Shown here: positions 25,603 through 44,290 of the stretch, piece by piece
How the letters are laid out: every line of letters begins with the position of its first letter
How positions within the stretch are numbered: position 1 is the stretch's first letter
Program-made: the position numbers and the translations under genes
Assembly: GCA_049852185.1 (NCBI GenBank)
Contig: CP187540.1
Length of the DNA: 64,000 nt
Source: Methanocaldococcus sp. 28A
GTDB taxonomy: Archaea > AGJL01 > Methanococci > Methanococcales > Methanocaldococcaceae
Strand: one strand, 5' to 3'
Notes under the pieces: model-generated
The model's database searches: none
Seen by the model: the letters and a program-made list of their open reading frames with translations, nothing else
Told to the model about the DNA's origin: nothing

Positions 25603-25683
25603 CCTATCACCTCCACATAATAATTTTAATGTTAAGCTATTAAAATTTTATTGTGTCTTATATAATATAAATTGGTGAAAATT

Positions 25684-26328
25684 ATGAAAATTGTAGGGAT
25701 TACAGATTTGCATGGAAAACTTCCAGCAGTAGTTAAAAAGTTTAAGGATTTTGCAGATATTTTAGTTGTTTGTGGGGATATAACACACTTTGGTAAAGGA
25801 ATTGAAGTTATAGAAAAGTTGGCTGAATTATCAGATTATATGGAAGTTCTTTGCGTTCCAGGAAATTGTGATACTAAAGAGGTTGTAGATGAGTTAAATA
25901 GCTTTAATTTAAACATAGATGGAAAAGTGAAAAAAATAGACAATATAAATTTTGTTGGAATAGGGGGGAGTAATAAAACCCCTTTTAACACTCCTAATGA
26001 ATATACAGAAGAAGAGATATATAATAAGCTTATAAATGTGGTTAAAAATTTAAAAAATATATTTTTAGTTAGCCATGCTCCTCCATATAATACAATGGCG
26101 GATATTGTTGATTTAGACAATGATATTCATGTTGGATGCAAATCTATAAGAAAGATAATTGAAGATTTTAATGAAAATATAATATTCTGTGCCTGTGGGC
26201 ATATACATGAAAGTAGATGTATAGACAAAATTAGAAAAACAATAGTTGTAAATCCTTCTCCAAAGAGTTATTTTGTTTATGATACAAAAAAGAATGTTGT
26301 AGTTTTAGAGGATTTTAAGGGGATTTAA
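25684..26328 (+). CDS. Calcineurin-like metallophosphoesterase
   Basis: DLHG, GD, PGNCD, SHAPP and GHIHE motifs. Confidence 0.92.
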   Translation: MKIVGITDLHGKLPAVVKKFKDFADILVVCGDITHFGKGIEVIEKLAELSDYMEVLCVPGNCDTKEVVDELNSFNLNIDGKVKKIDNINFVGIGGSNKTPFNTPNEYTEEEIYNKLINVVKNLKNIFLVSHAPPYNTMADIVDLDNDIHVGCKSIRKIIEDFNENIIFCACGHIHESRCIDKIRKTIVVNPSPKSYFVYDTKKNVVVLEDFKGI

Positions 26329-26337
26329 TTAATTAAG

Positions 26338-26763
26338 TTAAATTTTTGGTTTTTTAGATAGAATATATGTAAAGAAAGCTATTATTAGTAAATAAACATT
26401 TAATGGAATTGGGGCTTTTGTAGTATTTTTGTTAAAATTGTATTCTATTGGATATATATAAACTCCAATATTGTTAATAGTAACTATATTAGTATTCCTA
26501 GGACTTTGATGAAATATCCAATTATATCCTGAAGTACTCACTGAATTCCCACTATAATTTGGGTCAATTGTTATGTTGATGGTATATTTTCCAATATAAA
26601 TTATCTTTTGGAAATATTCATTATTTGGAATTATTTTCTGATAAATAATTTCCCCACTACTCACATTTTTTATAGTTATATTTATAGCATTAATTTCTGC
26701 AAAACAATTCTGTAAAAACAATAAAGACGTTAAAATTAATAAAATAATTTTAATATCTTTCAT
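26338..26763 (-). CDS. Small secreted surface protein with PIP-CTERM-like sorting signal
   Basis: Signal peptide; several N-x-S/T sequons; C-terminus TTKAPIP + hydrophobic helix + KKPK. Confidence 0.7.
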   Translation of the reverse strand: MKDIKIILLILTSLLFLQNCFAEINAINITIKNVSSGEIIYQKIIPNNEYFQKIIYIGKYTINITIDPNYSGNSVSTSGYNWIFHQSPRNTNIVTINNIGVYIYPIEYNFNKNTTKAPIPLNVYLLIIAFFTYILSKKPKI

Positions 26764-26872
26764 ATTCTTACCTCCTAAAAATTATTTAATAGATAGATAT
26801 GTTATATAAAAAAAATTTATGTTTAATTCATAGTTATGACAGTGTGATTACAATAGTCTTTTCTTTATTTAC

Positions 26873-26959
26873 ACTACTACACTTTTTAATTACTTCATAA
26901 AATGATATGTTGTATTTATTGCTTAAATATTTATATTTTACTACTACACTTTTTAATTA
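26873..26959. repeat. Two exact 20-bp direct repeats (actactacactttttaatta)
   Basis: Copies at 26873-26892 and 26940-26959 in a divergent intergenic region. Confidence 0.8.
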
Positions 26960-27072
26960 ATTGTGAATAATCGCTACAAATTTAATAAAACCGATATTAC
27001 ATTTGAGGTTAGATAATTACTTTCACATTGAATCAACTATCGCAACGATTTATGGTAAAATTAGGTGAAAAT

Positions 27073-27504
27073 ATGGAAAAGAAGAAAGAACTTTTAAAGA
27101 AAATCAGAGAATTTATGATTTTGAATTTAGAGATTAAAAAACTATCAAAAGAATTAGGAATTAATGAAATATATGATATTTATGAAGAGGTTACAAAACT
27201 TGTTAGAGAACCAAATAAAAGATTATATAAAATGCTTTATGATGTAGCAATGGAAATAGAATATGAAGAATTTGGTGGAAAGAAAAGGAAAGAAATTCCA
27301 TGGTTTCCAAAGATTGATTATGAAAAATGCAAAAATTGTAAGAAATGTGTAGAATTTTGTCCTAAAGGTGTTTATGATATAGAAAACGGTAGAGTTATTG
27401 TTAAATACCCATATAATTGCATAATTAACTGCAACGCTTGCTCATATATGTGCTGTGAGAACAACGCCATAATTTTTCCAGAGAATAAAATAGAAAAATT
27501 ATAA
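27073..27504 (+). CDS. 2[4Fe-4S] ferredoxin-domain protein with helical N-terminus
   Basis: IPWFPKIDYEKC..C..C..FCP.GVY and CIINCNACSYMC motifs; GGTGA RBS before MEKKK. Confidence 0.82.
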   Translation: MEKKKELLKKIREFMILNLEIKKLSKELGINEIYDIYEEVTKLVREPNKRLYKMLYDVAMEIEYEEFGGKKRKEIPWFPKIDYEKCKNCKKCVEFCPKGVYDIENGRVIVKYPYNCIINCNACSYMCCENNAIIFPENKIEKL

Positions 27505-27514
27505 GTGATAGATT

Positions 27515-28195
27515 ATGAAAATTGGTTATTTGAGTATTAGTGATAAAACAACAGTTATGTGTTACGGATGTAATTTTAAATGCAAAAATTGTTTTGTTAA
27601 GATGGAGAGTTTCAAAGATATACCCCCAAAAAAATTATGCAAAATAATTGATGATTTATGCACTAAAAAGAAAATAAATAATATCTTAATAGCCGGTGGT
27701 GAGCCTACTCTCCAGAAAGATTTGCCTGAATTTACAAGATTGTTAAAGAGTAAAAATAGAGAAGTGATTTTAACAACAAACGGTTATTATTTAAAAAATA
27801 TTGTTGATGATTTATTTGTTGATGAAATACATGTTGATTTAAAAGCTTATGATGATGAAAAACATAAATATCTAACTGGAAAATCAAATAAAAATGTCCT
27901 AAAATGTATAGAATATTTAGCAAAGAAAAAATTTAATTTTGAGGTAGATACTGTTCTAATTCCAAATATTGTTGATATAGATGAGATTGAGAAGATTGCA
28001 AAATTTTTAAGTAAATGGGACGCTAAATATAGAATTATTGGATATACTCCATTTAACAATAATTTAAATGCACGAAAACCTACAAAGGAAGAACTTTTAA
28101 AGGCAAAAGAAATTGCAAAAAAATATTTAAGTAATGTAACTACCTCATTAGATTTTAGAAGGCATAAAAAAGTTAAAGAGATTATAAAATTTTGA
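27515..28195 (+). CDS. Radical SAM protein (glycyl-radical-activase-like)
   Basis: GCNFKCKNC (CxxxCxxC), GGEPTLQ, TNG and VDLKA motifs. Confidence 0.88.
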   Translation: MKIGYLSISDKTTVMCYGCNFKCKNCFVKMESFKDIPPKKLCKIIDDLCTKKKINNILIAGGEPTLQKDLPEFTRLLKSKNREVILTTNGYYLKNIVDDLFVDEIHVDLKAYDDEKHKYLTGKSNKNVLKCIEYLAKKKFNFEVDTVLIPNIVDIDEIEKIAKFLSKWDAKYRIIGYTPFNNNLNARKPTKEELLKAKEIAKKYLSNVTTSLDFRRHKKVKEIIKF

Positions 28196-28207
28196 TGAAT
28201 AAAGTTT

Positions 28208-29353
28208 TTAATTTTTAGATAAATTTTGATAGTATTTTAATAGTTGAGCCTCTAAATCTTTAATGCTTCCATTGAATTTGATAACTTTTTTTCCATTCTC
28301 TAAAAGTTTTAAGTTTAGTCTATTCATCTCACCAACTGGAAAGTTTGTATCTATAACTACATCACACATTTTTAAGTATTTTAGTGCCTTATTAAAACTA
28401 TCTTCTGAAATTGGTTGATAAGCTTTCTCTTCAATAATCTCAACTTCCATAGTTTTAGCTATTACATAATCAATATCATTCTCATGTAAGACCCCACAAT
28501 AAACCTTATATCCATTTTTAACCAAATATCTCAAAACATTGGCCCCACTTCCTCCTCCACAAACAACAAAAACTTTTTTATCACTTGTATTTTCATTTTT
28601 TAATTCAAAATAACCAATTTCTTTACTAAAATTTGCATTTTTTAAATCATAGAGGTTATTTACTGTTTCTTTGTCCATAACATCTTCTGGATGTCCATAA
28701 GCTATTATCCTACCATTTTTGATTAGTGCTATTTTGTCGGCAATCCTTAAGGCGAGTTCTATATCATGAATAGTCACAATTATAGCGAGATTTTTTTCTG
28801 TTGCCAATTTTCTCAACAACAAAGTAAGCTCTATCTTGTGCCTTGCATCTAAAAAGGATGTGGGTTCATCTAAAATTAAAACCTTTGGTTCTTGTGCTAA
28901 TGCCCTTGCTATCATTATCTTCTGTCTTTCTCCATCACTCATTTCAAGGAAGTTTTTTTCTAATAAGTGAAGAGCATTAACAGCTTTCGCAGAATTTATA
29001 ATAATTTCCTTATCCTTCTCAGATAATCTTCCAAATAAATCTGTATAGGGATGCCTTCCTATTGCAATTATATCAAATCCTGTTAAATTTCCTGGATTTA
29101 CTCTTTCTGTTAAAACTACAGCCATTTTTTTAGCAAGTTGAGAAGGTTTTAGTTTATGTATTATATTTGAATCTAAATAAACTACTCCTTTTATAGGTTC
29201 TAAGTATGTCGCTATACACTTCAATAGTGTTGATTTTCCAACACCATTTGGTCCTATTATTGCCAAAATTTCTCCTTCTTTAACTTCTAAATTTACATTA
29301 TCGACGACAACCCTCTTATGATAACCAACGGCAAGGTTCTCAGTTTTTAACAT
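28208..29353 (-). CDS. ABC ATPase, iron-complex/cobalamin (FecE/BtuD) type, with C-terminal extension
   Basis: GPNGVGKST, GRHPY, MSDGERQK, LDEPTSFLD; extra domain starting VFVVCGGGSG. Confidence 0.92.
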   Translation of the reverse strand: MLKTENLAVGYHKRVVVDNVNLEVKEGEILAIIGPNGVGKSTLLKCIATYLEPIKGVVYLDSNIIHKLKPSQLAKKMAVVLTERVNPGNLTGFDIIAIGRHPYTDLFGRLSEKDKEIIINSAKAVNALHLLEKNFLEMSDGERQKIMIARALAQEPKVLILDEPTSFLDARHKIELTLLLRKLATEKNLAIIVTIHDIELALRIADKIALIKNGRIIAYGHPEDVMDKETVNNLYDLKNANFSKEIGYFELKNENTSDKKVFVVCGGGSGANVLRYLVKNGYKVYCGVLHENDIDYVIAKTMEVEIIEEKAYQPISEDSFNKALKYLKMCDVVIDTNFPVGEMNRLNLKLLENGKKVIKFNGSIKDLEAQLLKYYQNLSKN

Positions 29354-29387
29354 TTAATCACCTTAAGAATATTAAAAATTAAAACCA

Positions 29388-31421
29388 TTAAAATCTTCTA
29401 TTATATATTTTAATTAAAAATAGCCCTATTAAAAATCCAATTAAAGTAATTCCCGTATTAAAGCTATTGTTTGTATCTTCCTCGATTTCTACTCTTTTTG
29501 TGATTGTGTAATTTTTTACAATTTTATTAATCTTTATAATAACTTTTGATTGATTAATTGTTAAATTGTAGTAATAATCTTTGAATTTCATCTCTTTTGG
29601 CTTTATGATTTCAACAGACTCTTTAAAATTCCATATATAATCTTTTAATCTTTTATAAGGCATATAATATATAACATAACCTTTTATTTCTGTGCTTTGT
29701 GAAATATTTATTGGAATTGAAAATATTTTTGTTTCATTTGGCGGTAATTCAAATGAAATACTTGTTTTATTTGGTTTGTAGTTATCATAATCTACAAAGT
29801 AAATATATCCTCTAATCTTCTTATTGAATGGATTTTTAACTGTAATATTGCAATATATTGTTACATTTGTCTCATTAGTTCCATTAAGATATATTGTTTT
29901 ATTACTAAGAGAAACATTGATAAGATTTAACTTTTTTATTTCTATTACACATTCATCAGATGTTGTATGACCAAAAGTATCATTAACTTTTAATTTTACA
30001 AGATAAACACCTTCTTTTTTATATTTATGAACAGGGTCTGGAGTTGTTGATGTTGAATTATCACCAAAATTCCAATAGTAGTAAAGTTCAGTACTACCCT
30101 GACATAAAGAATAGAAATGTACTTCGTAATTATCAACAATCTCAAAAGCAAAGTATGCTTTTGGTAATGATATATTTTCCTCTGATATCGGAATTATATG
30201 AACAATCATTGTGTCTTTCAATGGAACTTCTACAATTTTTCCATTTTCATCAAACAGGTAAATATAAGAAATTTTTATCTCTGTCGTTAGATTTTCATTC
30301 TTTAGTGGTTCTATCCAGAAAGACAAAATATTAAAGTTACCACTTTTTGTTCCATTTATTCTAATATCAAAATCTAATGTTCCATTTTCAACAGACCAAT
30401 TTTTTTCAATAGTATTTAAACTTGTAGATATATCACTAATTTTTAGTATAGAAGAATTATATGTTATTTTTCCTTTAATTTCAGATATATTTGCATCAAT
30501 ATTTTTTGCTTCAATGTAACAAAGTTTAATATCTCCATAGGTAATATTTTCTTCAGTAGTATAAAAACCAACATACTTTTCTGTAGTAATGGTCTCATTC
30601 CCTATGGTAAAATTTGCGGGTTTTACAATAGTTTCATTACCATTTATTTTTATAGATGCATTAATTATATAATTTCCAGTTTTATTGGTAAAAAATGTTA
30701 ATTTCATCAAATCAAAATCTTCTTTTGAGGTATTTAAATTTATAAAAAAAGATAAACTGTTATCATTATAATTCAAATTTACATTTGAAATGTTATCTTC
30801 TAAATAATAAAAGTTTAAATTTACTAAAGTTAAATTAGGGTAATATATTGTTCCTGTTATATTGGTTATATTTCCTTTTGCATTTTTTATTGAAACAATT
30901 GTATCAAAATTCTCATTTAACTTTGGATTTATAGGGGTTATTTCTACAATTGTTAAATTTAATCCAATAATAGTTATATTTACAGAATTATAGGTTACAT
31001 TTTTTAATACATCCCCATTTTCATCAGAAAGTACAGGCTTTTGAAAAATTGTATATGTCCCATTATTTAATGTCCTAAATTTCAAAGTAGCGATTGTAAT
31101 GTTCCCAGATGGATAATTACTAAACCATGCTAATTGTATATTTATTATGCCATTCTCAACAGAAATTTTCTTTAAATTTGCATTATTACTTATATCACTT
31201 AAAATTATATCATCTGGAGTTATATTTAGAGAGGTTGGGTAATATATAGTATCTTGAAATCCACCCAATTTTTCAGATGTATTAACGGTTAGGGTTAATG
31301 TAAAGGAGTCATATTCCTTGATAGTAATATTCTCTGGAATTAGTTTAACCTCATCACCGAAACTTGTATGAAAATATAATATAAATGGAATTAAAACTAA
31401 TATTAAAAATTTCTGTCTCAT
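29388..31421 (-). CDS. Membrane-anchored surface protein: about 3 cohesin-like modules + PKD + Ig-like domain + C-terminal TM
   Basis: Signal peptide; LGGFQDTIYYP...IATLKF...LSDENG cohesin pattern; EIKGKITYNSSILKI; PKD motif YYWNFGD...PVHKY...GVYLVKLKV; TM helix + RRF. Confidence 0.8.
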   Translation of the reverse strand: MRQKFLILVLIPFILYFHTSFGDEVKLIPENITIKEYDSFTLTLTVNTSEKLGGFQDTIYYPTSLNITPDDIILSDISNNANLKKISVENGIINIQLAWFSNYPSGNITIATLKFRTLNNGTYTIFQKPVLSDENGDVLKNVTYNSVNITIIGLNLTIVEITPINPKLNENFDTIVSIKNAKGNITNITGTIYYPNLTLVNLNFYYLEDNISNVNLNYNDNSLSFFINLNTSKEDFDLMKLTFFTNKTGNYIINASIKINGNETIVKPANFTIGNETITTEKYVGFYTTEENITYGDIKLCYIEAKNIDANISEIKGKITYNSSILKISDISTSLNTIEKNWSVENGTLDFDIRINGTKSGNFNILSFWIEPLKNENLTTEIKISYIYLFDENGKIVEVPLKDTMIVHIIPISEENISLPKAYFAFEIVDNYEVHFYSLCQGSTELYYYWNFGDNSTSTTPDPVHKYKKEGVYLVKLKVNDTFGHTTSDECVIEIKKLNLINVSLSNKTIYLNGTNETNVTIYCNITVKNPFNKKIRGYIYFVDYDNYKPNKTSISFELPPNETKIFSIPINISQSTEIKGYVIYYMPYKRLKDYIWNFKESVEIIKPKEMKFKDYYYNLTINQSKVIIKINKIVKNYTITKRVEIEEDTNNSFNTGITLIGFLIGLFLIKIYNRRF

Positions 31422-31438
31422 TGTTATCCCCCATATTA

Positions 31439-32272
31439 TTATTTAAATCTTGTTAATATAAATCCAAAAATAACTCCTACTATCACTCCAAATACTAAAT
31501 AAAGAATATCCGTTTCTATATTATTAGAATTGACCTTTTTTTCAACAATTATCTTAACAACAGGCTGATATTCAGTTACATTAATCTCTTTAACAATAAC
31601 TTCTGGCCCATTAACATTTGGGGTTATATATATTCTGTTTACTATGGTAGAAGGTGAGGTAGTTCCCAAAGATACATCTTCTTCTTTTAAATTTTGGATA
31701 GATATGTTTGTTAAACTTCCTATTCCTTTAATAATAACCTTTGCTCCAAAAAATTCAGTACTAGGATACTTTTTCCATTGAAGAGTTTGATACTCTTCAT
31801 ATGAATTTATGCCATTGTATGCATATCCTAATGCTGAACTAATAGACCCTGAAATATTTAATTGAGTTTCTCCTTCCTTAATTGGAACAAACATTATTTC
31901 TCCAATACTAAAATCTTCTTCAATAGGGTTTTTAAAAACGATTTTTAGTGAGAACGTCCCATTTTTGAAATCATAAGATTTTAGCATACCCTCTTTATTA
32001 CATAAACTACTCCAATTGAACCCATATGGTTTTAGATAGTCAGGAGAATAGTTTATATTTATTTGAACACCTCTACATCCTCCATCTTCTTCCCCATCAC
32101 TATATTTAATATCACCAACTTTGGGTATATTTTCAACAGTAATATTAAACTTAATTATACTACCATTTGTAATGACTTCATTAGGAACTAATTTAACATA
32201 AATATTGTCTCCATAGGAGATATTTAAAAGAAAAATAAAAGCTAAAAGAGAAAACACCAAATATTTACTCAT
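31439..32272 (-). CDS. Membrane-anchored single-cohesin-like protein
   Basis: Signal peptide; FNITVENIP...GCRGVQININYSPDYL...IGEIMFVPIKEG; C-terminal TM + RFK. Confidence 0.72.
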   Translation of the reverse strand: MSKYLVFSLLAFIFLLNISYGDNIYVKLVPNEVITNGSIIKFNITVENIPKVGDIKYSDGEEDGGCRGVQININYSPDYLKPYGFNWSSLCNKEGMLKSYDFKNGTFSLKIVFKNPIEEDFSIGEIMFVPIKEGETQLNISGSISSALGYAYNGINSYEEYQTLQWKKYPSTEFFGAKVIIKGIGSLTNISIQNLKEEDVSLGTTSPSTIVNRIYITPNVNGPEVIVKEINVTEYQPVVKIIVEKKVNSNNIETDILYLVFGVIVGVIFGFILTRFK

Positions 32273-32278
32273 TATTAA

Positions 32279-32842
32279 TCACCTTTTTTTAACTATGTAT
32301 GCTATGGCTCCGATTAATACAATTATAATTATTAAAATAGCTAATAAAGTGGAATTAAACGAAAATGTATTGTTTTTTTCAAGATTTTGAGAAGTATTTG
32401 ATATATTTAACACATTTACTTCTAAAGTTTTGAGAGGAATTTTTATAGCATATCCCTCACTGTTCGACCCAACTGCCTTTACATCTATCCAAGCCTTTCC
32501 GGGCTTTATAGCTTTTATTATTACATCTCCTACTATAAAATCTCCATTTTTTGGATTATTTAAAAAAGCATACTCAATAAATGCACTATTGTTATTATTT
32601 TTTGTTAAGTTTAGATCTGCTCCTATATTATAGTTTATAACTTTTTCTATAACCAAATTATCTGAAACATAAATATTACACTGCAAACCACCACAATTTG
32701 AAACATTCTTTGCATAAATTTCTACAGTAAATATCTCCCCTTTTTTTACTTCAGAAGGAGCTTTTACTAAGATATCTAATGCCATACAGGAGGGTAGTAT
32801 AAAAAAAATCAATAGTGCTATATATTTTCTCATCTTATTCAT
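32279..32842 (-). CDS. Membrane-anchored single-cohesin protein
   Basis: Signal peptide; GEIFTVEIYAKNVSNCGGLQCNI...IKAIKPG...SNSEG; C-terminal TM + KKR. Confidence 0.78.
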   Translation of the reverse strand: MNKMRKYIALLIFFILPSCMALDILVKAPSEVKKGEIFTVEIYAKNVSNCGGLQCNIYVSDNLVIEKVINYNIGADLNLTKNNNNSAFIEYAFLNNPKNGDFIVGDVIIKAIKPGKAWIDVKAVGSNSEGYAIKIPLKTLEVNVLNISNTSQNLEKNNTFSFNSTLLAILIIIIVLIGAIAYIVKKR

Positions 32843-33008
32843 GATATCACCGAACTATAGTTTATTTTACTTATATTAAAAAATACCGTAAAATATATAT
32901 AACTCTATATAGTAAACGACATTATGTTAACTTAAGATTTTTTTATACAATTTCACAATATCTTTAACATTACTAATAACAATACTAATATAAATATTAA
33001 ATGGTGGT

Positions 33009-34373
33009 ATGATGCCGAAAAATATTAATATTATTGGGTATATATTAATTACTGTTTTCTTACTATTAGTTCCAGCATATGGAGAAAGCGTAGATGACTA
33101 TAAATATAGATTAGGTGACATCAACAAGGATGGCTCAGTAAATATCGCAGATGTCGTATACTTGTTTAAGCATTTAAATGATGTTCCAGTATATGATGGT
33201 GACTTAAACGCAGATGATAGCGTAGATATTGCAGATGTTGTGTATCTATTTGTTCATTTACAACAGTTGAGTGCACCAATTCACTACGCTAAACTATTAA
33301 AAATAACCTACTATGATAAAAATGGGAATATCGTTAACCCATACAATGGAGAGCCATACGCATATAAAATCGTTGTAGATGCCACAGGACAAAGATTCTT
33401 ACTAAAAAATGAAAGTGAACCAATTCCAGCATGGGCTGAAGGAAAATACGATAAAGTAATCAATGTTCCATTAAAAAGAGTAGTAGTAATGAGTTCCACC
33501 CACATAGCATTAATGGAACCACTAAACAATGATGGTTCAGTAATTGCTTCAGTAAAGGGAATAATGTGGGGAGGAAAATACAAGTGGTACTTTAAAGATA
33601 TAGAAGAGGGCTTAAATAATGGCTCAATAATTGATGTTGGTTCAACATACAATCCTAATTGGAACTTAATTCTTAATCTTTCACCACAAGTTATATTTGT
33701 CTATCCAGGATACAGTGGAGATGCAATAATTGAAAAATGTAAGGAATTAAACTTAACATATGTTGCAGATGCTGAATACTTAGAAGATTCCTACCTTGCA
33801 AGATGTGAATGGGTAAAGATGTTTGCAGCATTCTATAATAAAGAAGATGTAGCAAAAGAATACTTCACAAGAATCGAAAAGAACGCATTAAATGTTAAAA
33901 GAATTGTAAGTAAAAGTGATACAAGACCATTAGTAGCATGGGGTAAGAATTATCCTTCATTCGGAGGAACCTACGTCCCTAAAGGACAATCATACGTTGC
34001 TAAGGGAATCGAGTACTGTGGAGGAGACTATATATTCAAGGATATCCCAGGAACTGGCAGTGCATGCATAGATTATGAGACATTTGCAGAGAGGGCTAAA
34101 GATGCAGATGTGTGGGTAATACCATCAAGCACAACATGGTTAACAACATTTAAAGAAGATGATCCAGGGTATGAATACTTCAAAGCAGTTAAAAATGGGC
34201 GAGTATTCTGTATAAGTGATGATTACTGGCAACTTGGATTAATGAACACTGATCAAGTATTAGAAGATTTAGCAACAATAATTCATCCGGAACTATTCAA
34301 GGGAAGAACTACTCACTTCTTCCTAAAGTACTATCCGGATAATAATACAGCAGTGCCATATACTGCTAGTTAA
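33009..34373 (+). CDS. Dockerin-bearing ABC substrate-binding protein (TroA-like helical backbone, Fe-complex/cobalamin class)
   Basis: Cleavable signal peptide (AYG/E, no lipobox Cys); duplicated Ca-binding repeat GDINKDGSVNIADVVYL...GDLNADDSVDIADVVYL; VPLKRVVVMSST, EWVKMF, AVKNGRVF, LEDLATIIHPE. Confidence 0.88.
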   Translation: MMPKNINIIGYILITVFLLLVPAYGESVDDYKYRLGDINKDGSVNIADVVYLFKHLNDVPVYDGDLNADDSVDIADVVYLFVHLQQLSAPIHYAKLLKITYYDKNGNIVNPYNGEPYAYKIVVDATGQRFLLKNESEPIPAWAEGKYDKVINVPLKRVVVMSSTHIALMEPLNNDGSVIASVKGIMWGGKYKWYFKDIEEGLNNGSIIDVGSTYNPNWNLILNLSPQVIFVYPGYSGDAIIEKCKELNLTYVADAEYLEDSYLARCEWVKMFAAFYNKEDVAKEYFTRIEKNALNVKRIVSKSDTRPLVAWGKNYPSFGGTYVPKGQSYVAKGIEYCGGDYIFKDIPGTGSACIDYETFAERAKDADVWVIPSSTTWLTTFKEDDPGYEYFKAVKNGRVFCISDDYWQLGLMNTDQVLEDLATIIHPELFKGRTTHFFLKYYPDNNTAVPYTAS

Positions 34374-34431
34374 GTGAAATTCCTTTTCCTTCTTTTTAAA
34401 CTTTTAAAAATAAAGTTTTTGAAGGTGACGA

Positions 34432-37400
34432 TTGATGAAATGGAAGATAATTATAATGTCAATAATGTCAATTTTAATGGCATTACTAATTGGTGTTAAT
34501 GGAGAAAACGTAACTGTAGAATTAATTCCTAGTGATGTAAATGTATATGTTGGGGATACCTTTAACTTAGATTTAATTGTCGAAAATATCCCAAATGGAA
34601 CAATATCTGATGGTTTTTATAACTACTCTGGATACTGTGGAGGATTCCAAACAGATATTTATTATGATCCATCTGTATTAAATATAAGCCAAAATGATGT
34701 GATTTTAAGTAATGTAAGTAATAGCGCGTCAATTAAAAATGTGGATGTCGAAAATGGAAAAATAAATATACAATTAGCATGGTTTAGTAATTATCCTTCT
34801 GGAAACTTTACAATCGCTACTTTGAAATTTAAAGCATTAAAGCCATCAAATGTTGTAGTTTCATTGAGTAATACTGTAATATCAAATAAAGATGGAAATT
34901 ACACATGGAAAGTTAGTAATAACAATTTAATTTTAAAAGATTCAAATGTAACGATATTATTTAAACCAATTGCCGATTTAATAGTGCCTAAACTATTAAA
35001 TGCTGAATATGGAGAGAACATAACTGTTCCAGTAACTATAGCTCCTAAAGAAAATGAAACTTTAAAATTAATCGAAGGGTATTTATCATACGATAAAAAT
35101 ATGTTAAAACCTGTAAATGTATCTTCAAATGTAGGGACAGTTTTCTTCAACAGTTCAAGTGGTTTCTTTAAAATAGATAATATAAATCAATCTAACAATT
35201 TCACAATTAACATTACCTACAATGTAATAAATGTTGGTAATACAACAGTAAAATTAGACAATGTCTATATGGAAGACACAAATGGAAGTTTTGTAAGTAA
35301 TATTTCGTCTAATGCTACTGAAATAGTAATTCCTGGACCAGATTTAGTTTGTGAAATAGTTCCAGAGCTTTTAAAAGCTTATGAAAACAATACTATTTCA
35401 GTAGTTGTAAAGAATATAGGAGAAAGAAATGTAACAAACAACTTCACTGTTACCTTGTACGCAGATACATTTGAAATAGGGTCATGTGTAGTTAACGGAT
35501 TAGATGTTGGTCAAACTAAGGAAGTAAACTTTACATTCATGCCTACCGAAGAGAAAAACTATACACTTGTTGCTGTAGTTGATACAAACAACAATGTAAA
35601 AGAGATTAATGAATATAATAATAAATATGTTTGTAATTTATATGCTGTAGAATTACCAATTAGTGTAAATTTAGAATCTTCAACAAATGTAACAAAAATA
35701 GAATATACCTTCGAAGTAAACCTTACATTAAACAATATAACTCCTGAAAGACCTGCAAAGGCTATACAAGGAGTTTTAACGTATAATCCAAATGTAGTAG
35801 AGTGTACAAACTTCACATTCTTGATAACGCCTTCTGAAGTAAATGGAACATTCTTAGAAAATATTACATACGAAAAAGGAAAGGTATTGTTCAAATTAAT
35901 GGATGGAAATATTAACCATTCAATAGTCATAGCTACTGCTAAATTCATAGGAATAGATGTAGGTAATTCAAATATTGAATTATCTGATCTTGTAGTTTCT
36001 GACATAAATGGATACAAGTTTAACAAATTATTGACTAATAACGTAAGTATCATTGTACAAGGGCCAAATCTTAAAATAGTTAATCTAAGTGTACCAAATC
36101 CTTCAAAATATAGAGTTCCAACAACAATAAATGTTACAATAACTAACAATGGACACCAAGATGTAAATAAATCATTTAATGTTGCATTGTATGCAGATAC
36201 AGAAGAAATTGGAGAAGTAACTGTTAATGGTCTAAATATTAGCCAAGTTAAAACAATAGTATTTAACTGGACTCCAGATGATACAAGGACATATACTATA
36301 GTAGCTGTTGTTGATCCAAATAATGTAATTAAAGAGGAAAATGAAAGTGATAACAAGGTTGTTAAAGAAGTAAAAGTTATTGAGATACCAGTATGGGTTT
36401 CAGTATATAACACAACCCCTGTAATAAATGGAACATTTAATGCTACAATAGAAGTTAAGGGTATTGAAGATAAAAGACCATGTGGTGGATATCAGGGAGT
36501 ATTGATTCTCAAAAACTTAAAAATTGAAAATATAGAACTTCTTGGGCCAAAATCCTGCACAAACTATACTATAAACAATAATGAGTTAATGTTTATGGGA
36601 TACAATTTCACAGAGACAGGTACATTTAAAATAGCAAATATAACCTTTAAAATTATTGATGAAAATAAAAACTATTCAGCAATATTAGAAAATATGGTAT
36701 TATCTGATGAAGATGGTTATAAATTTAAAATAGTATTTATTAATAACACAATATTGCCTGAATACTTACAGAATATCTTTAAAGGATTATGTATTGAATC
36801 AGGAGTTCTTGATAAGTTAGATATTGAAAATGCAAAATTAGAAACTGCGGGAAACATTACTTTAGTAATATTACCACTGAAAATAGGAAATGTTGGAGAT
36901 GAGTTAATAATTCCAAAAGTTAGTAATAATATAACAATTAATATTACAGATGACGTTATTACAAAAATAAATTCTACATTGACAGATGCAAAAATATTAG
37001 ATGAAATTACTAAATCGATAAATGATGAAGAAGAACTAAATAAAACATTAGATATGATATTAGAAAAAATAGAACCGATACTTTGCGAAGGATTTAACAT
37101 AACAAACAAAACTAAAGAAGAACCAAAGAAGATAAACAATAAATTAATAGCTACAATAAAGTTTAAGGCTGAAAACACATCAAACAAAGGATTTGCAATC
37201 GTTAGAATTCCAATTGGTGAATTAAAAGTTGAAAGTATTGTTGTAAATAACGGAACTACTAATATTACCCTAAAAGAAAATGATATTAACAGTAATGTAG
37301 GTTGGTATAGATATGTAGATACTGGAATTATTGAAATTACCTTAATAAATGACCCTGAAGTAAGTATAACTCTAGCTAAGACATTACCTGTAATTCAAAC

Positions 37401-37896
37401 TACTACAACTACAACTTATTACTATATTGGAGGGGGTGGAGGAGTATCTTCAATAGTAAAAATGTATCCAAATGTAGCACCAGACATAAAATCAGAAAAA
37501 ATAAGAGAATTTGTATATAGAGCAAAATTAATCGTCGGTTCAGAAATAGACTTAAACTTATCAGCAAAATGCCTTAAAAATGAATCAGAGTTAATAAAAC
37601 AACCAATAGATATAACCGAAGACTGCATTTTAATTGGAGGACCAGTAGCAAATCCATTAGTTAAAAAATACATGTGGGTATTCCCAGTAAAAGTAACTAA
37701 CGACTATCCAGGAAAACACAAAGGAGTTATAGAGAAACAAATAATAAACGGACACACAGTAATCTTATTAGCAGGTTCAGATAGATGGGGAACAAAAGCA
37801 GCTGTAGAATACTTCAAAACATTAGACGATATTCCATCAGAACCAATATTCGTAGAATGGATTAACGGAACTGCCATAAAGATTAATAAACCTTAA
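34432..37896 (+). CDS. Scaffoldin-like surface protein: about 4 cohesin-like modules, 2 CARDB domains, Thr/Gly linker, S-layer-type C-terminal domain
   Basis: Signal peptide; CGGFQTDIYYDPSVL, IEGYLSYDKNML, AIQGVLTYNPNVV, CGGYQGVL; CARDB motifs VVDTNNNVKEINEYNN and VVDPNNVIKEENESDN; IGGPVANP...LAGSDRWGTKAA. Confidence 0.83.
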   Translation: MMKWKIIIMSIMSILMALLIGVNGENVTVELIPSDVNVYVGDTFNLDLIVENIPNGTISDGFYNYSGYCGGFQTDIYYDPSVLNISQNDVILSNVSNSASIKNVDVENGKINIQLAWFSNYPSGNFTIATLKFKALKPSNVVVSLSNTVISNKDGNYTWKVSNNNLILKDSNVTILFKPIADLIVPKLLNAEYGENITVPVTIAPKENETLKLIEGYLSYDKNMLKPVNVSSNVGTVFFNSSSGFFKIDNINQSNNFTINITYNVINVGNTTVKLDNVYMEDTNGSFVSNISSNATEIVIPGPDLVCEIVPELLKAYENNTISVVVKNIGERNVTNNFTVTLYADTFEIGSCVVNGLDVGQTKEVNFTFMPTEEKNYTLVAVVDTNNNVKEINEYNNKYVCNLYAVELPISVNLESSTNVTKIEYTFEVNLTLNNITPERPAKAIQGVLTYNPNVVECTNFTFLITPSEVNGTFLENITYEKGKVLFKLMDGNINHSIVIATAKFIGIDVGNSNIELSDLVVSDINGYKFNKLLTNNVSIIVQGPNLKIVNLSVPNPSKYRVPTTINVTITNNGHQDVNKSFNVALYADTEEIGEVTVNGLNISQVKTIVFNWTPDDTRTYTIVAVVDPNNVIKEENESDNKVVKEVKVIEIPVWVSVYNTTPVINGTFNATIEVKGIEDKRPCGGYQGVLILKNLKIENIELLGPKSCTNYTINNNELMFMGYNFTETGTFKIANITFKIIDENKNYSAILENMVLSDEDGYKFKIVFINNTILPEYLQNIFKGLCIESGVLDKLDIENAKLETAGNITLVILPLKIGNVGDELIIPKVSNNITINITDDVITKINSTLTDAKILDEITKSINDEEELNKTLDMILEKIEPILCEGFNITNKTKEEPKKINNKLIATIKFKAENTSNKGFAIVRIPIGELKVESIVVNNGTTNITLKENDINSNVGWYRYVDTGIIEITLINDPEVSITLAKTLPVIQTTTTTTYYYIGGGGGVSSIVKMYPNVAPDIKSEKIREFVYRAKLIVGSEIDLNLSAKCLKNESELIKQPIDITEDCILIGGPVANPLVKKYMWVFPVKVTNDYPGKHKGVIEKQIINGHTVILLAGSDRWGTKAAVEYFKTLDDIPSEPIFVEWINGTAIKINKP

Positions 37897-38062
37897 ATAT
37901 CCCTTCCCATTTATTTTTTTATTTTATTTTGGTAATAATATTTTTAAATATTTTCATACTTTTAACAATATTTAATTAAAATTATCATAAATTATATATA
38001 TAAAATATGTTAAATTATTATCATATAACATTATTTGAAAAAAAATAATACGGATGGATATC

Positions 38063-39391
38063 ATGTTTAAGAAAATAGTATTATTAATAATGGCTATTTT
38101 ATTGACACCATTGGCATTTGGAGAAAACGTAGGAGATATAAATGGAGATGGGTCAATAAATATTGCAGATGTGGTATATCTATTTAAGCATCTTAATGAT
38201 ATCCCCTTAGATGTTGGAGATTTAAACTGTGATAACTCAGTTGATATTGCAGATGTTGTGTATCTATTTAACAACATTCAACATTGGAGTCAACCTGTAG
38301 TATTTGCTAAGAACTTTGAAATAGAATACTATGATGCTAATGGAATTCCTGTAAGTTATAATGATAATTGGTCATATGCAATTTTAACTACAAAATATGG
38401 AGATACTATTTATAATAAATACTGTATTGTAAAAGAGGGTGAAAAGCCTCCTAGTAATTTACCTTCAGATATAAAAGTTATATATGCGCCTGTAAAAAAA
38501 GTAGCAACATTAAGTGATTTCCAAGTAGCTATGCTTGAAGCGTTAGATGATGATAAAGTAAGAGAATCTATAAAGGGAGTATCCAAATACACATACATCA
38601 GAATAAAAGATTATGGGGTATTTTCTGATTTAAAACCATATGTTGATAGTGGAGATATTGTTCCAATAGGGTCTCCTTGGGGTACAATTGATAAAGAGGC
38701 ATTATTAAATATAAGTCCAGATATTGTGTTTATCCCATGGTCACATGGCTATTTAGTCCAAGATATTAATACAGTAAAAGATTTAGGACTTAATTATCTT
38801 GTAACGGTCGAATCAAATGAACCAACATTCCTTGGAAAGGCTGAATGGATAAAAGTGTATGCTACGTTATATAATTTATGCAGTAAAGGAAATGATTTCT
38901 TCCAAAAAGTTTGGAAAAAGAGAAATGAACTTTTGAGAAAAACATATGATGTTGACTATAGACCAAAAGTAGGTATACTTTATTGGTCACCATATTCAGG
39001 ACCTTGGGTATATTGTGGCCAAAACTGTTATGCAAAATTAGTTTCAGATTTTAGAGGAGATTATGCATTTAAAGATATTCCTGGAACTTCATATGCAAAT
39101 CTTGATGAAGAAACAACCTTAGAACACTTACAAGGATGTGACGTGCTTATATATATGAACTGGAATTCATTAAACGAGCCAATAAATACACTTGAAGATT
39201 TAAAAAAAGATGTACCACAATTAGATCCAATAATAGACCATGCAAAGAGAGTGTATGTATCTAAATATAACTATGGATATGATGGATATGTACATATGGA
39301 TTTATTAATGGAAGACTTCGCAAGAATGATTCATCCAGAATGCTTTGATGGTGGAGATAGTGAATTACATTACTTCAAAAAACTGAAATAA
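38063..39391 (+). CDS. Second dockerin-bearing ABC substrate-binding protein
   Basis: Cleavable signal peptide (AFG/E); GDINGDGSINIADVVYL...GDLNCDNSVDIADVVYL; APVKKVATLS, KAEWIKVY, EDFARMIHPE. Confidence 0.88.
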   Translation: MFKKIVLLIMAILLTPLAFGENVGDINGDGSINIADVVYLFKHLNDIPLDVGDLNCDNSVDIADVVYLFNNIQHWSQPVVFAKNFEIEYYDANGIPVSYNDNWSYAILTTKYGDTIYNKYCIVKEGEKPPSNLPSDIKVIYAPVKKVATLSDFQVAMLEALDDDKVRESIKGVSKYTYIRIKDYGVFSDLKPYVDSGDIVPIGSPWGTIDKEALLNISPDIVFIPWSHGYLVQDINTVKDLGLNYLVTVESNEPTFLGKAEWIKVYATLYNLCSKGNDFFQKVWKKRNELLRKTYDVDYRPKVGILYWSPYSGPWVYCGQNCYAKLVSDFRGDYAFKDIPGTSYANLDEETTLEHLQGCDVLIYMNWNSLNEPINTLEDLKKDVPQLDPIIDHAKRVYVSKYNYGYDGYVHMDLLMEDFARMIHPECFDGGDSELHYFKKLK

Positions 39392-39490
39392 TCACACTAT
39401 TTTAATTTTGTCCTATTTTTATCTTCTAAATATTTAAATTTAAAGTTTATTAAAATATTTTTATATCTTATAAAGATAACTATAAATGAT

Positions 39491-39554
39491 TTATAGTTGT
39501 GTTCAAAATAAAATAAACTTTTATAAGGACAGATAGTTTTGCACACAACTATAA
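39491..39554. mobile_element. 64-bp internally deleted copy of the 24840 MITE
   Basis: Same ends and subterminal sequence; central hairpin missing. Confidence 0.88.
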
Positions 39555-39567
39555 ACTCTCATAGAAG

Positions 39568-40620
39568 GTGGTTATTTTGAACATTAGGATTAAAGCTCTA
39601 ACAGTATTTTTATTGTTAATGATATTTTCTTTGTCAATATTGAGTATAACTACTGGAACCATAAAAATAGAGCCAAAAAAATTTTATAACTATTTAATGG
39701 AAGGCACTACAGGTAATCCTATATATGACAAAATTATTGAAAAGTGCAGACTTCCAAGAACTGTTGGAGCAATATTTGCAGGAATGGGTTTAGCAGTAGC
39801 AGGCTTGTTGATGCAAAGTTTGTTTAGAAACCCTTTAGCTGACCCTTATCTAATAGGAGTCTCGAGTGGAGCTTCTTTAGGAGTAGCTCTTTATGTTTTT
39901 ACATCATTACTATTTAAGTTTGGTATACCTCAATCTATATGGGGATTTATAATATCTGCATACTTAGGTTCACTATTATCTATGTTCATTATTTTAGCCC
40001 TTGCAAAGAAGGTTAAACAAATTACCACACTTTTAATTGTTGGACTTATGATTGGCTATATCTCATCTGGGTTAATCACAATAGTTATTACATTTAGTGA
40101 TTTTCTTGGAGTTAATAACGATGTCTTGGCAAGTTTTATTATGTGGGGATATGGCTCTTTAAGTCAATTAACTATGAAGGAGTCAATAATTATGAGTATT
40201 TTTGTAGTTATATGTTGCTTTATAACTTACTTTTTGTCAAAATACCTTGATTCTTACTTACTTGGAGAAATGTATGCTAAGAGTGTTGGAGTTAATATAA
40301 AAAATTTGAGAATAGTTATAATTTTAATATCTTGTATGATTACAGCTAGTATTGTAGCATTTGCTGGACCAATAGGATTCGTTGGAATGGTTTGTCCAAT
40401 TGTTACAAGGTTGTTATGTGGAACATCAAAACATCTCTATGTAATTCCTAATGCTATGTTAATAGGTGCAATTTTTTTAATGATAGCGGATATTCTTGTA
40501 AGACCTGGAGTAATAATTCCAACAACAAGCACAGAACTACCTTTAATGTGTCCTTTATCAATTATTGGAGCTCCAATAGCCATAATGATATATATCAAAA
40601 GAAAAAAGATGGGGATATAA
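39568..40620 (+). CDS. FecCD/BtuC-family ABC permease
   Basis: [41 protein letters not shown] and GPIGFVG motifs. Confidence 0.93.
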
Positions 40621-41636
40621 TGAGAAAAATATCCATAATTTTGCTAATGGTTTTGTTAATATTTTCTCTATTTGTTTTTGGAATATTTAAAGGAGGTAAT
40701 GCAAAGTCAATAACTATGGATGATGTAAAAAATTTTTTAATTTATGGGACTACTGGAGATGAGTTTAAAGATACTATTATATGGGATGTTAGAATTCCTC
40801 CGTTAATAACTGCTTTAATTGTTGGAGCAGTTCTATCAGTTTCTGGATTAAAGCTACAGACACTTTTTAGAAATATTTTAGCTTCTCCATACACAACTGG
40901 AATATCCACTGGAGTTATATTGGGAGTAGCGATTACTATATTCTTAGGTTTTTCATTTTCAAATTTTTTAGAGATTCCTGATTATGTTATAGGAGGGTGG
41001 ATAGGAGCAGCTATAGCTTTAATAATATTATTGGCTCTTGCTTCAAAAATTAAGGATGTTACTGGAGTTTTAATTTGTAGTATATTGTTTGGATACTTCT
41101 ACTATGGAATTGAGAGCTATTTAATAAGTTTTGCTAACAATATCCAGATTCAAGAATTTTGGATGTTTTTACAGGGAAGTTTTTCAGGAGTAAGCTGGGA
41201 TGATTTAAAATTACTTAGTATCTGCTCAATAATCTTTTTGATATCATCCTATATGCTTTCAAAGCATTTAAATGCCCTACTTTTTGGAGAAAAATATGCA
41301 AAAAGCTTTGGTTTAAGTATAAAATATGTGAGGTTATTAATTTTATTACTCTCGGGGTTTATTGTCGGGGTTGTAATTCCTTATGTAGGTTTAATCCCAT
41401 TTATTGGTTTGGCAGCGCCATATATTGCAAGAATTCTAATGAAAACTTCAGACCACAGATGGACTATTCCTGCATCTATGTTAATTGGGATGAATATTGC
41501 TTTGATTTGTTATTTAATATCAATAAAATTATTTGCTCCAAGGGTAGTTCCTGTAAAATCAATTTTAGATTTATTAGGTGGAGCATTAGTAGTATATTTA
41601 ATATACACATCTGAAAAAAAGGTTAAATTTGAATAA
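40620..41636 (+). CDS. FecCD/BtuC-family ABC permease (second subunit)
   Basis: LQTLFRNILASPY, LLFGEKYAKSFGL and GLIPFIGL motifs; start overlaps the upstream stop (TAATG). Confidence 0.92.
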   Translation: MRKISIILLMVLLIFSLFVFGIFKGGNAKSITMDDVKNFLIYGTTGDEFKDTIIWDVRIPPLITALIVGAVLSVSGLKLQTLFRNILASPYTTGISTGVILGVAITIFLGFSFSNFLEIPDYVIGGWIGAAIALIILLALASKIKDVTGVLICSILFGYFYYGIESYLISFANNIQIQEFWMFLQGSFSGVSWDDLKLLSICSIIFLISSYMLSKHLNALLFGEKYAKSFGLSIKYVRLLILLLSGFIVGVVIPYVGLIPFIGLAAPYIARILMKTSDHRWTIPASMLIGMNIALICYLISIKLFAPRVVPVKSILDLLGGALVVYLIYTSEKKVKFE

Positions 41637-41644
41637 TAAATCTC

Positions 41645-43072
<1,428 letters not shown>

Positions 43073-43411: not shown

Positions 43412-43907
43412 TTTTCTATACTGAAGGTCTAATTTTAATAAAGAAAAAGAAATTTTATGCTATTTTATACAAATGTTTCCACACGAATCGGTCTTATTTT
43501 AATTTTAATTGGTATATTGAATATATTAAATAAAAGTGATGTAAATAAAGTTTCCATACCGAATCGGTCTTATTTTAATTATTCTTTTTATAGTTGCTTA
43601 TTATGACAGTTCCATCGTTTCCATACCGAATCGGTCTTATTTTAATACTCAACTGAAACACTTGCTAATCACACTTATAATGTTTCCATACCGAATCGGT
43701 CTTATTTTAATTATTAATAAATGTAATACTTTTTTTAAAATTTTTTGGTTTCCATACCGAATCGGTCTTATTTTAATAAATAATTAAACTTATTGAAAAT
43801 GGAATCAACGAAGTTTCCATACCGAATCGGTCTTATTTTAATTATATGTGAAAAACCTTTTATTTGTAATCCAATAAGTTTCCATACCGAATCGGTCTTA
43901 TTTTAAT
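43412..43907 (-). CRISPR. CRISPR array, 30-bp repeat ATTAAAATAAGACCGATTCGGTATGGAAAC; 6 exact + 2 degenerate repeats, 7 spacers
   Basis: Plus-strand repeat gtttccataccgaatcggtcttattttaat at 43550, 43617, 43682, 43748, 43813, 43878; degenerate copies at 43475 and ~43412; spacers 35-37 bp, one of 46 bp; decay at the left end puts the leader on the right. Confidence 0.96.
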
Positions 43908-44290
43908 AGGAGGCATTTTTTGAATTAAACGAAATTAAGCATTTTTAAATCTTTATTTTATAGGGGTTATATTACGACCCCCCAATTACCTGATTTCTTT
44001 ATATACCCTAACTCATATAAATACTTTACGGTATTGTATTAATTAGAACAATAAAAACCCCTTAACTAAAAAATCAAATTATCTATCGGGGAAATCTAAA
44101 TATAAAAATAATTATCTAAAATCTCCTAAAAATCTTATTAATTTAATACATCTAAATAAGTAAAATATTAAAAATAAGCTACCCTTAGAAATTATCTAAA
44201 AATCTTTAAAATCAAAAAATAACCATTTAAAAAGATTTAAATTAAAAATAAAAAACTTTCAGCGTGATAAATATAAACCCATTGACAAAC
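43908..44290 (-). promoter_or_regulatory. CRISPR leader
   Basis: AT-rich non-coding stretch next to the most conserved repeat; far boundary approximate. Confidence 0.72.

Follow-up and report, generated by a model that had tools for sequence, protein, structure and literature searches.

Cohesin and dockerin modules of a methanogen ABC importer locus: a probable envelope tether for substrate-binding proteins

A 64,000-nucleotide (nt) stretch of contig CP187540.1 (assembly GCA_049852185.1) from Methanocaldococcus sp. 28A, here called the window, contains at 28208-41636 a type-II ATP-binding cassette (ABC) importer locus that also encodes cohesins and dockerins. We propose that the cohesin-dockerin pairing is probably the envelope tether of the importer's substrate-binding proteins (SBPs), substituting for a lipid anchor. 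Coordinates of open reading frames (ORFs) and Pfam searches resolve nine genes in two divergent blocks. The minus-strand block comprises the ABC ATPase and secreted proteins of 677, 277 and 187 amino acids (aa), which we name Coh677, Coh277 and Coh187; the plus-strand block comprises a 454-aa SBP (SBP454), a 1154-aa protein (Sca1154), a 445-aa SBP (SBP445) and two FecCD permeases. This bears out the inventory of an earlier note on this DNA, which listed one ATPase, two FecCD permeases, two SBPs and four secreted proteins. That note also claimed that the cohesin-dockerin pair displays solute receptors on the cell surface; from synteny, the 38/40 concordance of the two modules among genomes and the lipobox found at the dockerin position in relatives, all described below, we retain this as the best reading.

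The two SBPs, SBP454 (33009-34373, plus strand) and SBP445 (38054-39391, plus strand), are each composed of a signal peptide, a dockerin (at about 33090-33296 and 38108-38314, respectively) and a Peripla_BP_2 core (PF01497; 9e-23 and 5.5e-12 by Pfam). The Dockerin_1 model (PF00404) scores 28.5 bits in SBP445, above its cut-off of 22.9, and 17.0 bits in SBP454 when taken as one stretch, which falls below the cut-off, with its two halves summing to 30.5 bits. Type-I dockerins are built of a tandem repeat in which a Ca-binding loop of 12 residues (D-x-N-x-D-G-x-x-x-x-x-D) precedes a helix. Directly after the signal peptide, both SBPs have two such loops, whose starts lie 28 residues from each other, with VVYLF behind each loop. 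Ca-loop positions D10, N12, D14, G15, D21, D38, N40, D42 and D49 are invariant in 25 homologues, and a profile of 25 dockerin modules run against the PDB returns as its nine best matches short dockerin chains of cellulosomal proteins, with E values from 4e-7 to 9e-5. The earlier statement that each SBP begins with a duplicated Ca-binding dockerin is thus sustained by Pfam, by the two loops and by the PDB matches, and the two Pfam families that the note had singled out for checking, PF00404 and PF01497, are both found in SBP445 and SBP454. Dockerin-SBPs with a C-terminal extension of about 200 aa and a shortened core were also encountered (P0019, 627 aa; P0041, 572 aa; L056).

The cohesins are distributed over the four secreted proteins. 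Sca1154 (34432-37896, plus strand) is scaffoldin-like, with a signal peptide, four cohesins (about aa 27-171, 180-301, 411-543 and 653-778 by a local profile), two CARDB domains (1e-34) and an S_layer_C domain (aa 1062-1127; 33.8 bits, 3e-8 by Pfam). The Pfam Cohesin model (PF00963), which the earlier note had suggested applying to these proteins, recognises three stretches of Sca1154 with 37.2 bits (cut-off 24.1); it is positive for that protein only and matches none of Coh677, Coh277 and Coh187, the first of which yields only a PKD domain by Pfam (1e-11). The local cohesin profile, seeded with the first cohesin of Sca1154 and iterated on the fetched loci of relatives, finds exactly three, one, one and four modules in Coh677, Coh277, Coh187 and Sca1154, so that the approximate count given earlier (about 3, 1, 1 and 4) turns out to be exact. 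In Coh677 (29388-31421, minus strand) a signal peptide is followed by cohesins at about aa 24-152, 156-276 and 282-409 (independent E values, iE, of 1e-29, 7e-16 and 5e-23), the PKD domain (aa 430-490) and a C-terminal helix. Coh277 (31439-32272, minus strand) has a signal peptide, one cohesin (about aa 23-165, iE 4e-30), a stalk of about 90 aa and a C-terminal helix, and Coh187 (32279-32842, minus strand) has the same order with a cohesin at about aa 21-145 (iE 9e-24) and a stalk of about 20 aa.

A pooled profile of 48 cohesin modules finds in the PDB, as its best 20 matches, nothing but cohesin and scaffoldin chains (best E 1.1e-11), and matches the solved Archaeoglobus cohesin 2xdh at 5.3e-7; the family of Sca1154 cohesin 1 alone has five matches at E<=0.01, five of five being cohesins. 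Profile-profile alignment (hhalign) with that family joins the Coh187 family at a probability of 98.0 (E 1.6e-13, 110 columns) and the Coh277 family at 96.4 (E 1.3e-9, 116 columns). As a lead only, the nearest ESM Atlas cluster to Coh277 is labelled 'Cohesin domain-containing protein' (0.92, 186 shared features). Judged by these profile comparisons, every claimed module is homologous to bona fide cohesins.

The termini of the four proteins indicate how they might be held. Hydrophobic 19-mers followed by basic residues lie at aa 654-672 of Coh677, 256-274 of Coh277 and 166-184 of Coh187; a hydrophobicity scan of Sca1154 reveals no C-terminal hydrophobic helix, and this protein is one of the three S_layer_C proteins in the genome. 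The earlier description, in which three of the proteins end in a membrane helix and one in an S-layer-type domain, therefore agrees with the 19-mers at three C-termini and the S_layer_C domain of Sca1154. The helix of Coh277 is kept in 10/10 orthologues. In some orthologues of Coh187 from other genera and from the congener G015 (L035, L042, L061, L062 and L064), a short amphipathic tail ending in ..FLKSILGG replaces the helix, and these proteins may be free or peripherally bound cohesins. A signal-peptide-like segment opens all four proteins, and N-X-S/T sequons number 3.2-6.1 per 100 aa in the cohesin proteins (6.1 in Coh677) versus 0.4-1.3 in the SBPs and ATPase. With signal peptides and such a density of N-glycosylation sequons, the cohesin proteins look extracellular.

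The genome assembly (1.56 Mb, 99.9% complete) has two dockerins, both of them on SBP454 and SBP445, and all nine of its cohesin modules sit in the locus according to our own profile (Pfam alone finds three). Besides those of the locus, no Peripla_BP_2 or FecCD gene was found genome-wide. It follows that the locus is the single type-II ABC importer of the organism, and that in this genome the cohesin-dockerin system has no client other than the two SBPs. As the earlier note had observed, the locus has no glycoside hydrolase, none being detected by Pfam among the 14 proteins scanned in 25672-43069; nor does Pfam find a carbohydrate-binding module in the locus proteins. Cellulosomes (clostridial and ruminococcal, with the derived amylosomes and mucinolysomes) share with the locus a type-I-like dockerin of two Ca-loop/helix repeats, a multi-cohesin scaffoldin, separate cell-anchoring cohesin proteins and plug-and-socket assembly. 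They differ from it in several respects: here the clients are two transporter SBPs, the dockerin is N-terminal and directly follows the signal peptide, anchoring relies on membrane helices at the C-terminus and on an S_layer_C domain of archaeal type in place of SLH domains or sortase, and the host is an archaeal methanogen. The locus follows the assembly logic of a cellulosome but is not one, because its only dockerin proteins are the two SBPs and its proteins include neither glycoside hydrolases nor carbohydrate-binding modules.

We surveyed 40 genomes of the order with our own cohesin and dockerin profiles (E<=1e-5). Cohesins are present in 27 of them and this dockerin type in 27; 26 have both, 12 have neither, one has cohesins only (G030) and one has the dockerin only (G017). 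The two modules are thus present or absent together in 38/40 genomes, which are related and not independent of one another. Within the genus of the window the distribution is patchy, with nine genomes containing both, eight containing neither and zero mismatches. The earlier note would have given up its interpretation if dockerin-SBP and cohesin genes did not co-occur elsewhere, and both were found in 26/40 genomes. G030 is only 64% complete, and a Pfam dockerin lies there on a 509-aa frame, a size near that of dockerin-bearing phosphatases of 494-506 aa. The entire gene set is found again in three genomes (G001, G014 and G039), and six more have it in rearranged form (G004, G015, G020, G025, G026 and G036); its synteny extends to several genomes, which represent at least four of the order's five genera. 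Since the cohesin and dockerin genes are syntenic with the importer across genera, concordant in 38/40 genomes, and the dockerin takes the position of a lipobox, we assign them to the importer, to which comparative genomics supports their belonging functionally.

The strongest clue to what the dockerin does comes from relatives. Homologous SBPs are found in 17/17 genomes of the genus. Five complete congeners without cohesins (G002, G003, G005, G007 and G016) retain the ATPase and both permeases along with one or two SBPs each; none of the four cohesin genes was found in them, and every one of their SBPs has a lipobox (..AGC or ..SGC) and a Thr/Gln/Ser-rich linker at the dockerin position. The fetched loci contain 47 distinct SBPs, 36 with a dockerin, 9 with a lipobox and 2 representing a distant short paralogue, and all 9 lipobox SBPs come from cohesin-negative genomes. 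On a maximum likelihood tree of the SBP core (46 rows, the 627-aa fusion left out, midpoint root), the lipobox label requires 2 changes (2-2 over bootstraps). The lipobox forms make up one clade in each paralogue group, with support of 100/100 and 99/100, and each clade is nested among dockerin forms. The branching pattern of this midpoint-rooted tree suggests, by parsimony, that the dockerin was replaced by a lipobox in one lineage. In a library of 1.84 billion proteins, the SBP core family has 6879 representatives at E<=1e-3, and only 4 of the 150 top-scoring homologues have an alignment that starts in the dockerin. Longer distant homologues, eight of which were scanned with Pfam, carry at the N-terminus a Cu_amine_oxidN1 stalk (4/8), SLH domains (2/8) or neither (2/8), and other distant homologues begin with a lipobox or with a membrane helix and a Thr-rich linker. 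Such varied devices at one position indicate that the SBP N-terminus is a slot for interchangeable envelope anchors, with the dockerin as its Methanococcales version.

The two dockerins have also evolved in concert. Between the two SBPs of one genome (15 pairs) the dockerins are on average 86% identical (58-100) and the cores 38%, with dockerins 100% identical in G015 and G026; between SBP orthologues of different genomes (n=306) the corresponding values are 72% for the dockerin and 59% for the core. Loop positions 10-11 are genome-specific and common to both repeats and both SBPs, reading IA here, VS in G021-G023 and II in G025. This pattern fits gene conversion, or selection matching both receptors to common partners.

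In the mechanism that we favour, Sec export and signal-peptide cleavage would leave the SBPs without a lipid or membrane anchor, and their N-terminal dockerin would plug in a Ca-dependent manner into the cohesins of the four envelope proteins. Three of these would be membrane-held by their C-terminal helix on stalks of unequal length, namely those of Coh187 (about 20 aa) and Coh277 (about 90 aa) and, in Coh677, two further cohesins plus the PKD domain. The four-cohesin scaffoldin would be held in or at the S-layer by its S_layer_C domain and might store further copies of the SBPs. The SBPs would in this way be kept between membrane and S-layer, possibly up to nine per set of cohesin proteins; the membrane-anchored cohesin proteins may present them to the permease, and loaded SBPs would reach the heterodimeric, ATPase-powered translocator. 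We infer that the locus cohesins bind these dockerins, as we do the stoichiometry and which of the cohesins would be productive. The phrases of the earlier note according to which the system positions SBPs for the permease and forms a multivalent scavenging array may be read in the same conditional sense.

A more ambitious extension of the tether would be a 'transportosome', in which a cohesin scaffold runs from the membrane to the S-layer in three membrane tiers of different height plus the scaffoldin and gathers up to nine copies of the two different receptors about one translocator. We advance it as a speculative and rather unlikely elaboration. If true, it would constitute a third general mode of SBP supply besides lipid or helix anchoring and permease fusion, and would give the cohesin-dockerin pairs of archaea their first physiological role; the cohesin types might then set receptor height or turnover. 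In a different scenario the array would face outward, the scaffoldin and Coh677 showing SBPs at or beyond the S-layer for the capture of scarce chelates or for adhesion to minerals or partner cells, with an inward hand-over, as a functional analogue of an outer-membrane receptor. The S_layer_C anchor on the four-cohesin protein, the graded stalk lengths of the three membrane-anchored proteins, and the CARDB and PKD spacers, which are typical of surface proteins, would all be in keeping with such an array. Nevertheless, congeners manage with lipid-anchored SBPs alone, and the cohesin-dockerin bonds of cellulosomes are usually long-lived, which argues against a relay. We find this outward array distinctly improbable.

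Several observations weigh against a dedicated tether of the SBPs, and rival explanations draw on some of them. In relatives, dockerins are not confined to SBPs. An alkaline phosphatase with a C-terminal dockerin-like module is encoded at L034:6878-8362 (G004), L036:6966-8486 (G025) and in L040 (G037); the phosphatase domain is recognised by Pfam at 8e-90 and 1e-77 and the dockerin-like module at 16.9-18.4 bits (hmmscan), and no alkaline phosphatase was found in the genome of the window. At L039:10145-15400 (G026) lies a gene for a 1751-aa secreted protein with six CARDB domains, two PKD domains, a TED domain of alpha-macroglobulin type and, at its C-terminus, a dockerin (33.2 bits), with a 3-CARDB protein and an S_layer_C protein encoded downstream of it. 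With phosphatase and 1751-aa dockerin clients, the cohesins of relatives are not SBP-specific everywhere and in some genomes would make up a rack of broader use. Taken further, the cohesin proteins might serve in the envelope as a generic rack open to whatever dockerin protein is secreted, with the SBPs merely its remaining clients and the linkage to the importer devoid of meaning for transport. The clients just described (L034, L036 and L039) are what such a rack would hold, and nine cohesin modules for two clients would also suit it. However, each genome examined has its cohesin genes within the importer locus, their absence coincides exactly with lipoboxes on the SBPs, and dockerin-SBPs occur in 26/27 cohesin-positive genomes; a purely generic rack thus seems to us unlikely.

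Other difficulties concern the modules themselves. In contrast to the nearly alike dockerins, the nine cohesin modules are only 13-52% identical to one another, each grouping with its own orthologues; the closest pair is formed by the first modules of Coh677 and Sca1154, and identity to the Coh187 module is 13-27%, its own orthologues excepted. This divergence means that some modules may bind something else or nothing. Searched alone against the PDB, the Coh187 family has four matches, all cohesins, at E values (0.023-0.29) that are not significant, and the Coh277 family finds no cohesin. The Coh187 orthologues are without a membrane helix in 6/12 genomes checked. Only about 8-10 residues separate the second dockerin helix from the start of the SBP core, and with so short a linker an SBP locked on the S-layer scaffoldin would not obviously be able to reach the permease. 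Finally, G017 (99% complete) has no recognisable cohesin anywhere, even at E<=1; its dockerin-SBP (L059:8715-11324) adjoins an ATPase, has no permease nearby and is otherwise surrounded by unrelated genes. The tether does not explain this orphan dockerin.

The dockerin-SBP of G017, as well as the failure of the 277-aa family alone to be recognised as a cohesin in the PDB, would be compatible with a dockerin-like segment that is only a Ca-binding, stabilising or sorting module of the SBP, the neighbouring beta-sandwich proteins having an unrelated surface role. Against this possibility stand the concordance of cohesins and dockerins in 38/40 genomes, the way in which the two dockerins of a genome evolve in concert, and the fact that both kinds of module are clearly homologous to cohesins and dockerins of solved structure that interact. 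We give it very little credence.

Anchoring of SBPs by a lipid, helix, SLH domain or stalk is the closest parallel in monoderm bacteria and archaea: the SBP family and the N-terminal position of the anchor are the same, and so is the presumed purpose of holding the receptor near the translocator. The locus departs from it in that the anchor is a separate protein bound through a non-covalent pair, with several receptors per anchor and several anchor heights. Non-cellulosomal cohesin-dockerin pairs of Archaeoglobus fulgidus, reportedly the subject of Peer et al. 2009, resemble those of the locus in being archaeal and unrelated to cellulose, and our module profile matches the Archaeoglobus structure 2xdh; unlike them, the locus has proteins of three and four cohesins, a defined client and an operon, whereas the Archaeoglobus pairs have no assigned role. 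According to excerpts of PMC9012536, the 2009 survey contained no archaeal multi-cohesin scaffoldins. The same excerpts (Chadwick et al. 2022) report that dockerin-bearing SBPs of ABC transporters are common in anaerobic methanotrophic archaea (ANME), naming the families NikA/OppA and TroA and proteins with up to five cohesins, with no role assigned to the SBPs. These ANME proteins parallel the locus as fusions of ABC-transporter SBPs and dockerins in methane-metabolising archaea that also have multi-cohesin proteins; in contrast to what we find here, the ANME account, as excerpted, includes neither an operon link to cohesins or a permease, nor a comparison with lipid-anchored orthologues, nor a role. 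The function of non-cellulosomal archaeal cohesin-dockerin modules is called unknown in the relevant portions of PMC5244752 and PMC9012536. In a 2018 review of archaeal surface biogenesis (PMC6098224) a term search places neither cohesins nor dockerins among the anchoring mechanisms, so a tether of this kind would be a new entry on the review's list, as far as that search extends.

No description of this Methanococcales locus was found in the full-text literature, a search whose scope excluded supplements and Peer et al. 2009, which may already tabulate some of its proteins. The claim of the earlier note that no such system has been described accordingly needs qualifying: within that scope it stands for the Methanococcales locus, and it gives way for dockerin-SBPs as such, which the excerpts of PMC9012536 report in ANME. 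In sequence collections, SBP homologues are named 'periplasmic binding protein' or 'iron complex transport system substrate-binding protein', and scaffoldin homologues 'CARDB domain-containing' or 'APHP domain' protein; cohesin and dockerin occur in none of these source names, and the named SBP homologues all come from Methanococcales genera. A scan of genome contigs with the dockerin profile lists at least 80 loci, of which three combine a dockerin with this SBP core, all of Methanococcales type, while the other 77 listed are generic dockerins, mostly bacterial and a few archaeal. Within the order, the locus proteins of G039, which belongs to another genus, are closer to those of the window than are those of the full-locus congener G004, and the SBPs of G039 nest inside the window's genus in the gene tree; lateral transfer of the whole locus is therefore possible.

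The locus suggests a concrete and falsifiable function of cohesin-dockerin pairs in archaea. Natural controls are provided by congeners in which the transporter is the same and the receptors are lipid-anchored, and the locus occurs in several genera, some of which have genetic systems. It bears on the effects of receptor number and proximity in ABC import, and its set of nine divergent cohesins with their matched dockerins, coming from a lineage of hyperthermophile type, may serve as heat-stable assembly parts.

FecCD domains, an ABC ATPase and Peripla_BP_2 receptors are encoded together by Pfam, the composition of a type-II ABC importer, and one also found in FecBCDE, FepBDGC, FhuBCD and BtuCDF. 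The locus differs from these systems in that no component reaches an equivalog cut-off, in its two receptors, whose cores are 36% identical and which lie beside one translocator, and in an extension of the ATPase. The ATPase (28208-29353, minus strand; 381 aa; ABC_tran 7e-30 by Pfam) is accompanied on the plus strand by FecCD permease 1 (39568-40620, 350 aa, 4e-72) and permease 2 (most likely 40620-41636, 338 aa; 1e-65). Against the curated NCBIfam cut-offs, no component qualifies as a corrinoid (BtuCDF) or ferric-citrate (FecBCDE) equivalog: the best model for the ATPase is the haloarchaeal corrinoid ATPase PRK09536 at 232.7 bits (cut-off 537), with FecE at 215.5 (cut-off 375), and that for permease 1 is BtuC at 187 bits (cut-off 334), while SBP454 scores at most 21 bits, with IsdE, and SBP445 has no NCBIfam match. 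A corrinoid importer was considered and rejected, its sole basis being this sub-threshold best match of the ATPase. The SBP profile run against the PDB finds the Fe(III)-citrate-binding YfmC (2.6e-8), an iron-binding protein (1.8e-7), BauB, YclQ and HtsA, and no B12-binding name appears among its matches at E<=0.01; Rfam detects no riboswitch in the window. Two different permease genes are the arrangement of FecCD/FepDG heterodimers, unlike the homodimers of BtuC. On these comparisons the substrate is most likely a bulky metal chelate, and, with low confidence, an Fe(III) chelate appears somewhat more likely than a corrinoid.

The C-terminal extension of the ATPase, some 130 aa long (residues about 250-381, window 28208-28600), has a weak match to YjeF_N; the protein aligns with positions 3-355 of the PRK09536 model. 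Congeners of the lipobox type keep the extension, and most of their ATPases measure 377-380 aa. The mechanical ORF of permease 2 starts at 40548 and would give 362 aa. The ATG at 40620, which overlaps the TAA of permease 1 by one base, is most likely the true start, giving 338 aa in place of 362; the orthologues measure 335-339 aa and abut permease 1.

Between the two blocks, the divergent spacer separating Coh187 from SBP454 (32843-33008) was aligned with its orthologues, ten spacers in all. A/T-rich blocks, among them a TATA-like ...ACCGTAAAATATATATA and a repeated AAAGATT, are kept in the ten genomes, and these conserved blocks could be promoters and a regulator site. A look-up of RNA sequencing runs covering 31400-39400 listed none. 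The locus is flanked by genes for a metallophosphoesterase, a 141-aa ORF product without a Pfam match, a ferredoxin-like protein, a radical SAM protein and aspartate kinase, which are housekeeping genes unrelated to the locus and uninformative on the substrate. A mobile island was set aside as an origin of the locus, the GC content being ordinary. Directly downstream of the aspartate kinase gene lies a small CRISPR array (43446-43910), in which Rfam recognises a 30-nt repeat six times (CRISPR-DR13, 41.5 bits per copy) and a repeat search counts seven copies, one of them degenerate, at a spacing of 65-76 nt.

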